Positions 8,145 through 13,097 of a stretch of DNA of 64,000 nucleotides are shown in pieces. Made by a program: the position numbers and the translations under genes. Positions within the stretch are counted from its first letter, which is position 1; each line of letters opens with the position of its first letter. The notes under the pieces are model-generated. The model had not been told where the DNA came from. It searched no databases and saw nothing but the letters and a program-made list of their open reading frames with translations. The DNA comes from Pyrinomonadaceae bacterium (GTDB lineage Bacteria > Acidobacteriota > Blastocatellia > Pyrinomonadales > Pyrinomonadaceae): assembly GCA_046261855.1 (NCBI GenBank), contig JBHENX010000067.1:21141-85140 (forward strand), given 5' to 3'.

Positions 8145-11100
8145 TCACTTCACCTTCACAATTACGCTGTTCACACTCAGCGCGTTTCCCGTAGCTCGCT
8201 GCAAATCAGCGATGGCTTTGTTTAAGTCGGTTTGCGCTTTTAACTCCAGGCCACGTGCTGTTGTCAACGCCGTTTGCCGCTCGAGCAAAAGAAAGGTGGT
8301 CGATTGACCGGCGTCGAGTTTTCTTTGTTCGCTCGCGAACTGCTGCTCGTTCGACTCGCGTGTCGCGATGGCCGCGCGCAAACGAGCTTCCGCACTGCGC
8401 ATTGCCTGCAACGCGTTACGCACTTCGACTTGTATCGACTGTTCGAGTTGCTCGCGCTGCGTCCCGATGCGTTCGCCCTCGACGAGCGTGCGACCGAGTT
8501 GCGCTTCGGCAGTGCGATTCCGCAACGGCAAACTAATCTGCACGCCCACGCGGAAGTTGTTGAAACGATTCGACAGCAGGTTCTGCACTGACGTTCCAAA
8601 ACCGCCGATCAGATCAGGCGACAAAGTTTGCGGCGGCACGATAGGCAACGGCTCCAAACCCGCAAGCACCGACAGTTCATCGACACGCTGCCGCACCACC
8701 AGGTTCGAGGCCGTAAACGGATTAACCCCCGCGGTGCTGATCGAACCGGCGAGACCGTTGATGCCGTAGTTGCCCACCAGATCGACCGCCGGTTTCGTCT
8801 GCTCCTTGAAGTACTTCTTGTCGATCTCGTTTATTTCGCGCACAACATTCGACTGCTGCAACTCCGGCCGGTTCTCCATCGCCATCTTCAATGCATCAGG
8901 AAGCGCGACGTTCGGAACCGTGAGTTCAACCGGATCCACCGGAACGATCGACTCGGTCCAAAGCTCCGAGTTCTTGTTTTCGGCGATTAGGTTTTTCAGA
9001 TTGTTCTCAGCACGCCCCACTTCTTCGAGCGCGCTGAACACGCCCTGCTCGTAAGTTGTAATTTGCGCTTCCGCAGCTACGATGTCGATCGGCGCGAGAA
9101 CTCCTTCGTTCACGAGTCGCCGATTGTGTTCGAGCTGCGTGCGCGCCACTGAAACAGCATCGCGCTGCACTTGCAGACTGCGGAGCGCAAACACGAGATC
9201 CCAGTACGCGCGCTGCACGTTGGTGATCGTGTCGATTGCTCGTTGGCGAAACTGCGCGTCAGTCAACGACAGGTTCTTGCGCGCGATTTCGATCTGCCGC
9301 CGGCTTTGGTCAAACTTCAGCCCGCGCCAGAGCGGCTGCGTGTAACTAACGGACAGCGCGGTCGGAAACGACGGATTAAGGGCTACGAACTCGTTGTTCG
9401 TCGTGAACCTTCCCGACGAAACATCGAATCGATAGCTGCCACCCAGAACGGGGGACTGTCCTTCGAGACGCGCGTTACCCGCGAAATCGCTCTGAGTAAC
9501 TGAACCGTTCTGACCGCCGCTCAAAAAGCTGGTGATCGGATTGTCTGCGCGTTCATAAAACGCTGACGTCGTCAGGCGCGGATCGTAAACGCCTTGCGCA
9601 CCGCGCAGATCAAACTCCGCGATGCGCACGTTCTCACGCGCGACCTCGATGTCTTTGTTATTTTCGAGTGCTAACGAAATCGCGTCGCGCAACGCGAGAG
9701 GCCGCTGGCGATTCATGTCCACGCCGACACGGTTCAACTCTGGCATCGGTTTCTGCTCCGCACGGAAGTCAGGTGCCACCGGCGGCACCGGTATCTGCTG
9801 AATCGGCGCCGGTGTAGGCGTGGCGCTAGACTGTGGCGAAGCCGCAGGCGGTGCGGTCGTCTGTTGTGCGGACACGTTCGCCGACATGCCAACCACCATC
9901 AACATCAGAAACAAACCAAACAGCGACGCTGCGGCGCTTGCCGCACGCCGGCGCACGCGACCGAAGACCGAATTGACTCTCGCGCGCATCCGTCCCCAAA
10001 CACGATTCTTCGCGAGGTCGTCAAAGAGTGAATAGAAGACGGGAACCGCGAGCAGTGTCAGCAACAAACAGAGCGTTTGTCCGCCGACCACCAACACGCC
10101 GATTGAACGGTTCGTTCCCGCACCTGGACCACTCGCGAGCGTCAACGGCATCATGCCGGCGACGAGTGCGATAGTCGTCATCAGAATTGGTCGCAAACGA
10201 TCGCGGTTTGCGCGAATAATTGCTTCAAGTCGTTCCATACCACGTTCACGTAATTGATTTGTATGATCGATTTGGAGAATGGCGTTCTTCTTCACCACGC
10301 CAAACAACAACAGCAAGCCGAGCCCGGAGAAGATATTCACCGTCTGCCCCGTCATCAACAGCGACAGGATGCCGAACGGCACCGCGAGCGGCAGCGTCAA
10401 CAGAATCGTTACCGGGTGGATGAACGATTCAAACTGCGCTGCCAGCACCATGTACATGAAGACAAACGACAACAGGAACGCGAGACCGAAGTAATACCCG
10501 GCACGTCCGAGCTCTTTCGAACGACCCGCTAGACCGGTCGAGTACGCCGGATCGATCTGGATCTCTTGCGCAAACTGGTTCATCTGTTGAATGACCGCCG
10601 CTTGCGAGCCTCCGGGCCTGACGTTCGCGAGCAGTGTGACCTGACGTCGACGATTCAGACGATCGATCGCCGATGGTCCAGTGCCTTCGTCTACGCGCAC
10701 GAGGCTGTCAAGACTGACCCAACCGACTTTATTAGATGACACGATCATTCGCGTCAGGCCTTCAGCGCTCGTGCGAAACGCGCCGATCGCACGAACCCGC
10801 ACGTCGTATTGATCGGTGCCCGCGTTGAACGTTGAAACCTTCTGTCCGGCGACGAGCGAGTTGAGCGCCTGCGCGATGTCGCCCACGCGCACACCGAGAT
10901 CCGCGGCGCGATCGCGATCGATCACGACTCGCAGTTCTGGCTTACCGCCGATCAGCGTTGAGTCCGCGTCAACCACGTCCGGAATCGTTTTCATCTTCGC
11001 CAGCAACTTGTCCGAATAGTCGGTGAGCTTGTTCAGATCCGGACCACCGATCACGTATTGAATATCAGCGTTGCGGAAGCCGCCGCCGGAAATCGCCGCA

Positions 11101-13097: not shown

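Follow-up and report, generated by a model that had tools for sequence, protein, structure and literature searches.

Tripartite efflux pumps of the resistance-nodulation-division (RND) type are taught as assemblies of three separate proteins in which the outer-membrane channel is exported independently. The operons of MexAB-OprM, MdtABC-TolC, and AcrAB-TolC resemble the locus presented here in their components and in the order TetR regulator, adaptor, RND permease, outer-membrane factor (OMF). This locus is located in a 64,000 nt stretch of DNA from a soil-dwelling Pyrinomonadaceae bacterium of the Acidobacteriota (the window; assembly GCA_046261855.1, contig JBHENX010000067.1, positions 21,141 to 85,140 of the forward strand). 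Unlike the canonical operons, it encodes the RND permease and the OMF as one polypeptide, the OMF has neither a start codon nor an N-terminal signal peptide of its own, and the RND part is predicted to carry a 13th helix. Close orthologs of the locus keep the classical split layout of the canonical RND operons. The window contains a genuine and selectively maintained fusion of the RND and OMF genes of one efflux operon, and we consider it probable, at roughly 0.72, that its product is a polyprotein with an internal signal peptide, the 13th helix, which is cut by signal peptidase I.

A literature search for a natural RND-OMF fusion yielded no description; its coverage was incomplete and the result is absence of evidence only. 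A review of tripartite systems (PMC8277102) mentions no RND-OMF fusion, and none is contained in a survey of outer-membrane pore families which lists known fusions (PMC4827864). Apparently, such a fusion is undescribed so far. This agrees with the first-pass annotation of this DNA, made by a model from the letters alone, which knew of no described case.

A single reading frame with two complete domains

The fused gene is a single open reading frame (ORF) on the minus strand which starts with ATG and is translated without an internal stop. Its parts, with the evidence for each, are:

8145..13097, minus strand: RND-OMF precursor, one frame of 1650 codons; stop codon at 8145-8147
9990..13097, minus strand: RND permease domain (HAE1, AcrB/MdtB-like), aa 1-1036; ACR_tran, alignments with MdtB and AcrB, invariant residues
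9945..9989, minus strand: conserved basic cytoplasmic tail of the RND part, aa 1037-1051 (MRARVNSVFGRVRRR); the same tail (FGRVRRR/K...) ends unfused RND orthologs
9867..9944, minus strand: hydrophobic helix and c-region, aa 1052-1077 (AASAAASLFGLFLMLMVVGMSANVSA), predicted transmembrane helix 13 (TM13) or internal signal peptide; junction comparisons, shuffle control
9801..9866, minus strand: low-complexity linker rich in Pro, Ser, Thr, and Ala, aa 1078-1099, predicted N-terminus of the mature OMF; translation, confidence of the AlphaFold2 (AF2) model
8148..9800, minus strand: complete OMF of the TolC/OprM type, aa 1100-1650; OEP, profile search, AF2, Foldseek

Across the junction the translation reads ...VPVFYSLFDDLAKNRVWGR-MRARVNSVFGRVRRRAASAAASLFGLFLMLMVVGMSANVSA-QQTTAPP.... 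An identical protein is deposited as NCBI entry MFN2408075.1 under the title 'efflux RND transporter permease subunit [Pyrinomonadaceae bacterium]'. Pfam ACR_tran (PF00873) matches aa 6-1025, which covers positions 3-1020 of the 1021 in the profile (E 6e-282), and Pfam OEP (PF02321) matches the downstream part in two stretches (E 4e-34). The NCBIfam assignments agree (RND_permease_2 and type_I_sec_TolC / NodT, respectively). Since the frame is full-length in both the ACR_tran and the OEP parts, both halves are complete. The initial observation that an RND pump and a TolC-like factor share one frame of 1650 aa is therefore confirmed by ORF, translation, and Pfam/NCBIfam assignments, and by about 70 fused homologs described below.

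The RND part aligns end to end with MdtB (9lyq_B; query 7-1034 against 15-1028 of 1040, E 2e-152), and the alignment with AcrB spans 5-1027. D400 and D401 (..VIDDAIV..), K936/K937 (..VKKNAIL..), and R967/R969 (..DRLRPILMT..) are invariant in 56 aligned homologs. Matching them by motif, we take these residues to be the counterparts of D407, D408, K940, and R971 of AcrB, which form the proton relay in TM4, TM10, and TM11. Judged by the full-length profile match and the proton-relay residues, the RND part is a HAE1 permease of the AcrB/MdtB type. Its full-length alignment with pumps of solved structure points to a topology of 12 TM helices with both termini in the cytoplasm, to which the fused protein adds one predicted helix.

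An AF2 model of the C-terminal 573 residues, computed with an alignment of 44 sequences, has a mean confidence score (pLDDT) of 91.6. When this model was searched with Foldseek, TolC, ST50, OprN, and OprM were retrieved at E ~1e-18 with TM-scores of 0.67-0.77 (normalised to target length) over ~520 columns, the match to TolC 1ek9 having an E of 3.5e-18 and a TM-score of 0.75. A profile search with the OMF part matched OprM (3e-14), CmeC, and TolC, and a direct phmmer search of the OMF part against PDB sequences gave no match at 1e-5. Standalone OMFs align along the full length of the fused OMF part. According to the model the OMF part has the complete fold of a TolC protomer. In the OMFs of loci L045, L049, L050, L060-L063, L066, and L071-L082 a low-complexity stretch rich in Pro, Ser, Thr, Ala, and Gln, which varies from 0 to >200 residues between species, sits between the cleavage site of the signal peptide and a conserved ..PxVAPDFRA..RVGVD motif.

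Split orthologs and the origin of the junction

Many close relatives, at 88-90% identity, are unfused RND proteins of 1061-1066 aa, and one of them (P0277) falls into the 90% cluster of the window protein itself. The unfused loci are syntenic with the window (TetR, membrane fusion protein [MFP], RND, OEP, DinB, Exo_endo_phos, PIG-L) and contain the OMF as a separate gene. Their RND proteins end with ...VWGRIRVGVDGVFGRVRRRAASAAASLFGLISKQ ahead of the stop codon (also written ...FGRVRRRAASAAASLFGLISKQ), i.e., with ..SLFGLISKQ, and this tail is conserved down to ~45% identity. Because the unfused RND proteins end with the same tail, the RVRRR stretch belongs to the RND protein and not to a TolC signal peptide. 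The first-pass annotation had described the junction as a signal peptide with a basic stretch, a hydrophobic core, and a V-S-A/Q cleavage site (here and below the slash in a cleavage site marks the cut). All three elements are present; the assignment of RVRRR has to be revised, since it is the RND protein's own tail.

In the split loci 0-159 nt separate the RND stop codon from the ATG of the OMF, in most cases including an AGGAA-like site, and the OMF begins with an ordinary signal peptide, for example MRKISLTLLILICASGLAVA/QE. The AGGAA-like sites ahead of genuine OMF starts end ~6 nt upstream of the ATG. When the DNA is aligned, the window and the fused loci L003, L004, and L009 are devoid of the segment which comprises ISKQ and the stop, the spacer, the ATG, and the codons of the n-region. 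Based on these alignments the origin of the fusion is an in-frame deletion, which removed the RND stop codon, the spacer with its site resembling a Shine-Dalgarno (SD) sequence, the OMF ATG, and the n-region of the signal peptide, and which left the basic RND tail (..FGRVRRRAASAAASLFG) immediately adjoining what remained of the old OMF signal peptide, its hydrophobic core and A-x-A site. The OMF part of the fused protein has neither start codon nor n-region; only the h- and c-regions survive, embedded behind the RND tail. The earlier view that a complete TolC precursor, signal peptide included, follows the RND part does not withstand this comparison with the split loci.

The junctions of the fused clades differ from each other (in the first line the slash marks the joint):

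Window's clade: ..SLFG/LFLMLMVVG.., old OMF Met not kept
70-72% identity clade: ..SLLGxMFKILLI.., old Met kept
P0070/71: ..SSAKMFIWL.., old Met kept
P0072-80: ..RRPRRMG.., old Met kept

In loci L012, L013, and L015 the OMF ATG comes right after the RND stop codon and in the same frame (gap 0), and exchange of a single nucleotide in that stop codon would fuse the two genes. A neighbour-joining tree computed from the RND parts shows fused and split forms intermingled inside the clade of 81-95% identity. The tree was drawn from the 120 best hits, a list biased towards fused proteins, and the direction of change was not read from it. It follows instead from the ..LISKQ end with its stop codon, which is conserved in unfused RND proteins at 45-90% identity, and from the differing junctions of the fused clades. 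In the same tree the RND parts of two fused proteins, P0011 and P0069, nest within otherwise unfused clades, a placement which may reflect recombination, independent fusion, or chimeric assemblies. A further peculiarity exists in locus L019, where around 6061 an unrelated sequence of 130 residues extends the RND tail and shares 83 nt with the OMF frame; the locus of this metagenome-assembled genome probably contains a frameshift error or is a pseudogene.

A predicted signal peptidase site at the junction

In the window the junction consists of RVRRR, 20 uncharged and mostly hydrophobic residues, and a c-region of six residues, SANVSA, with a Gly at -7, followed by QQ. Signal peptidase I is predicted to cut after A1077, and the boundary between A1077 and Q1078 corresponds to nt 9867 and 9866. 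The positions given for it, and for Met1037 at nt 9989, in the first-pass annotation are correct. The basic RND tail (aa 1037-1051) would act as the positively charged n-region of the predicted internal signal peptide.

For the window's family, 74 unique fused junctions were compared. Just past the hydrophobic core, 71 of them have a small residue and then Q, the residue at -1 being Ala in 68 and Ser in 3. Position -3 is T, V, A, S, or G in 94%, no constraint is visible at -2, where S, R, L, F, K, Y, and others occur, and position -6 is A, S, or P. A rule for the site which disregards the Q is satisfied by 65/74 junctions, compared with 8.1 ± 2.8 expected from global and 21.3 ± 3.6 from local shuffles. 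The pattern is that of the classical -3/-1 rule for signal peptidase I. Further, helix and site of the junction correspond in alignments to the h- and c-regions of the signal peptides with which unfused OMFs begin; the cleavage site of the split orthologs has been retained, under selection, after fusion. The same plan of basic tail, hydrophobic stretch, and A-x-A prevails in a second fused family (see below).

In AcrB-type pumps the C-terminus, at the end of TM12, is cytoplasmic, and by the positive-inside rule an Arg cluster is held in the cytoplasm. The 1650-aa chain would be made as a single precursor in which the basic tail after TM12 remains inside while the hydrophobic stretch enters the membrane as helix 13, oriented N-in/C-out. 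The OMF part of ~570 residues would then pass via Sec into the periplasm, signal peptidase I would cleave after V-S-A1077, and the mature OMF, beginning with QQTTAPP.., would take the normal route to the outer membrane; the RND permease would retain the extra C-terminal helix. Because one precursor supplies both parts, production would be obligatorily 1:1, as in the 3:3 assembled pump. Of the two possibilities raised initially, internal initiation of TolC or a genuine fusion with a 13th N-in/C-out helix and release by signal peptidase, the latter fits the comparative data best.

Several points weigh against this proposal. The cleavage itself is a prediction from sequence. The statistics of positions -1 and +1 are partly circular because the rule used to locate the site itself required a small residue and then Q; positions -3, -2, and -6 and the shuffle control provide the independent evidence. 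In the window's clade ~26 uncharged residues lie between the last Arg and the cut site, compared with ~16-17 in unfused N-terminal signal peptides, and long hydrophobic segments can serve as uncleaved anchors. An AF2 model of aa 1-1100, i.e., the RND part plus TM13, was poor (mean pLDDT 51, predicted TM-score 0.27) and is uninformative on the packing of TM13. Lastly, a retained ATG and a conserved, rare TTA-GG suggest that internal initiation may coexist with the fusion in the sister clade at 70-72% identity.

Distribution and conservation of the fusion

A search of 5.8 billion proteins returned ~70 fused homologs of 1600-1814 aa which contain both PF00873 and PF02321, with identities from 95% down to 58%. 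Their source assemblies are independent of each other, stem from JGI, ENA, NCBI, and Logan, and bear the names Pyrinomonadaceae or Blastocatellales; one homolog resides on a contig of 2.77 Mb with TetR and MFP genes upstream. Databases label the fused proteins solely as RND permeases. A scan of loci used one genome per GTDB species; among the 80 best-matching loci, which were kept, 11 have the fused frame. The apprehension expressed at the outset, that orthologs might be uniformly split and the fusion restricted to one assembly, has not materialized: the orthologs are a mixture of fused and split forms.

Between the window and the fused loci L003 and L004, which belong to other species, dS is ~0.6-1.5. 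The ratio of nonsynonymous to synonymous substitution rates (dN/dS) is 0.065-0.098 for the OMF and 0.03-0.115 for the RND half, and tail and TM13 taken together have 0.28-0.36. As dN/dS is low on both halves, the sequences demonstrate that the fused frame is long maintained under purifying selection.

Three of the fused proteins (P0073, P0075, and P0076; 1765-1814 aa) contain an extra ~100-150 residues right behind the hydrophobic segment. This stretch is of odd composition, partly rich in Cys and His, and the usual A/Q site is absent.

An exhaustive search of 1.84 billion cluster representatives retrieved more fused proteins at 34-45% identity (P0121, P0125, P0127, P0151, P0173, and P0258). 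The junctions of all six combine basic and hydrophobic stretches with a site whose -3 and -1 residues are small, and in five of them Q comes next. P0258 is from Capsulimonadales, Armatimonadota. When it was used as a query, a second, unrelated fused family emerged, comprising 59 of the 119 top hits (P0287-P0405), with lengths of 1508-1615 aa. Its source names include Capsulimonadales, Fibrella sp., and Acidobacteria RIFCSPLOWO2_02_FULL_67_36, on contigs of up to 2.2 Mb. The junction common to most members is ..FDDASKVRLWRWRR, an Ala-rich or hydrophobic stretch and A-x-A/Q; in detail it reads ..TPVAYSLFDDASKVRLWRWRRSxRAAAATA..LALLxLxPxxAxA/Q... By these sequence comparisons, the RND-OMF fusion is widespread and has arisen several times.

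Alternative explanations

The predicted site might not be used at all, or not always. The fusion would then stay whole, with 13 inner-membrane helices connected via the flexible Pro/Ser/Thr/Ala-rich linker to a TolC-type outer-membrane barrel, i.e., a covalent efflux subunit spanning two membranes. Between the end of TM13 and the first helix of the OMF lie about 62 residues, AF2 assigns no regular secondary structure to the initial 48 residues of the OMF model, and by our estimate the stretch, if fully extended, could bridge the required 100-200 Angstrom. In addition, with ~26 residues the uncharged span in the window's clade resembles an anchor more than it does the usual signal peptide. Nevertheless, we regard a permanent tether as unlikely. 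The -3/-1 pattern with its free -2 position is still conserved after a dS of ~1, which is unexpected if cleavage were irrelevant, and we know of no beta-barrel outer-membrane protein which assembles while anchored in the inner membrane. Linker length, considered as a mark of a permanent tether, was rejected as such: it is unrelated to the state of fusion, ranging from 0 to >200 residues in unfused proteins, and there is almost no linker in some fused ones (P0019, P0021). In a milder variant cleavage may be regulated and the cell may control release of the channel.

Quite unlikely, in our judgement, is a separate translation of the OMF from a start inside the fused frame, either from Met1037 (ATG at 9989-9987) or from the GTG of V1048 at 9956, in which case the fusion would be a mere loss of a stop codon. 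It is true that GGGGA precedes the ATG at 9989 by 3 nt, that a start at the GTG would yield a textbook MRRR... signal peptide, and that the 70-72% sister clade keeps a Met (..G-x-MFK..) behind TTA-GG. Yet the fused relatives have I, L, W, or Q at the position of Met1037; the GGGGA is a conserved Trp-Gly codon pair which is present in unfused orthologs, too; and its spacing of 3 nt is short compared with the ~6 nt of AGGAA-like sites at real OMF starts. The proposal of TolC synthesis from Met1037 in the first-pass annotation is weakened by this variability and by the coding origin of the GGGGA. Unfused orthologs have the GTG of V1048 just as well without its being a start codon there, and no SD-like sequence is located upstream of it. 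In the second fused family 54 of 59 members have no Met whatsoever ahead of the hydrophobic stretch, leaving 5/59 with one. Besides, in a frame without a stop each RND chain carries the OMF anyway, and processing or tolerance would still be needed.

The 70-72% clade deserves a separate description. In the fused loci L027, L033, L034, L035, L037, L039, and L056 the old OMF Met is in frame (..SLLG-x-MFK..), and in most members of the clade TTA-GG precedes it, TTA accounting for only 3-5% of Leu codons there. In L041, which belongs to the same clade, both the Met and the TTA are missing. From its sequence the TTA-GG may be a retained ribosome-binding site, permitting internal initiation alongside the fusion in this clade.

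Returning to the cleaved precursor, the cut could also be made by another protease or at another place, e.g., within the low-complexity linker (aa 1078-1099), instead of after A1077 by signal peptidase I. This linker is variable as well as disordered, and pLDDT is 55-59 across the first 20 residues of the OMF model. On the other hand, the signal-peptidase-type site is the sole conserved short motif between the two domains and some fused proteins have no linker, and we consider this very unlikely. The weakest explanation, an assembly or sequencing error or a recent stop-loss pseudogene peculiar to this genome, can draw on the two separate genes of the close relative P0277 / L083 from the same 90% cluster and is virtually eliminated by the identical architecture in ~70 independent assemblies and in 11 of the 80 best-matching loci of species-representative genomes, by comparisons of fused genes, in which both halves are under strong purifying selection, and by a junction which differs from unfused genes by a clean in-frame deletion without a frameshift.

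Operon context and neighboring genes

The genes which accompany the fused frame on the same strand are:

14473..15174, minus strand: TetR-family regulator, first gene of the cluster; Pfam TetR_N E 4e-16, NCBIfam AcrR-like
13206..14513, minus strand: periplasmic adaptor (MFP); Pfam HlyD_D23 and HlyD_3, TIGR01730 RND_mfp E 1e-77
7661..8128, minus strand: DinB-family gene, 16 nt downstream of the fused frame; Pfam DinB, same neighbor in L001

TetR and MFP genes hold the same positions in the syntenic loci L001, L002, L083, and L084, and the operon context of regulator, adaptor, and pump proposed in the first reading is thereby confirmed. The true start of the adaptor is probably ~15 codons past the first ATG because its orthologs measure 416-421 aa. 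The DinB-family gene is possibly co-transcribed with the fused gene. A promoter and terminator scan of 7400-15600 detected nothing exceeding shuffles, and Rfam and tRNA scans of the window were empty. Judged by its genes, the system would function as an ordinary TetR-controlled tripartite pump of the HAE1 type; what differs is the architecture of gene and precursor.

Elsewhere in the window a few ORFs may be mentioned. A 1009-aa ORF at 34597..37626 (minus strand) has Sigma70_r2 at residues 24-83 as its sole Pfam match; it looks like an N-terminus similar to extracytoplasmic function sigma factors followed by ~900 residues of unknown function. An outer-membrane receptor of the type CarboxypepD_reg + Plug + OMP_b-brl_4 is located at 31155..34415 (minus strand) and overlaps by 47 nt the listed ORF 27866..31201 (minus strand), a 1111-aa S8 subtilase with a TTG start; a second receptor of this type is at 45535..48552. 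The ORFs 3836..5755 (plus strand, 639 aa) and 48595..49737 (minus strand, 380 aa) have no Pfam match at E 1e-5.

Implications and comparison with known systems

In the genomes with the fusion, which number in the hundreds, are environmental, and belong to Acidobacteriota, Armatimonadota, and others, an inner-membrane pump and an outer-membrane channel are one translation product, and export of the channel consequently relies on a signal peptide which is located ~1050 residues into a polytopic membrane protein. If cleavage indeed takes place, this would be a natural bacterial polyprotein which supplies two different membranes and in which the production of pump and channel is fixed at 1:1. It would further mean that operon neighbors with different destinations fuse easily, by a short in-frame deletion or, in some relatives, by one point mutation. 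Pairs of fused and split orthologs which are >90% identical would constitute a test bed for the supply of channels and for co-translational targeting in pump assembly. As to annotation, the OMF is invisible in gene inventories since the label reads 'efflux RND transporter permease subunit'.

Processing of the type predicted here may not be without parallel. The cytochrome b/c1 precursor FbcH of Bradyrhizobium japonicum is reportedly processed in a similar manner. A precedent is the polytopic LtaS of Staphylococcus aureus, which is cleaved after a late helix by the type I signal peptidase SpsB (PMC12260438). These proteins and the RND-OMF precursor share a multi-spanning N-terminal part, a hydrophobic segment with a signal-peptidase-type site, and a downstream domain which is released, in our case by prediction, on the outer face of the cytoplasmic membrane. 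Unlike theirs, the released product of the fused gene is an outer-membrane channel, a beta-barrel/alpha-barrel, which must cross the periplasm and assemble elsewhere, and its cleavage is predicted. Mergers of adjacent genes are known from the single-chain SecDF in Thermus and from MacB with its fused nucleotide-binding domain (PMC8277102). In those cases, too, adjacent genes for parts of one machine form a single reading frame in some lineages and remain separate in others. Yet the SecDF and MacB fusions join parts which reside in the same membrane and need no proteolysis, whereas the RND-OMF fusion unites partners destined for two different membranes.

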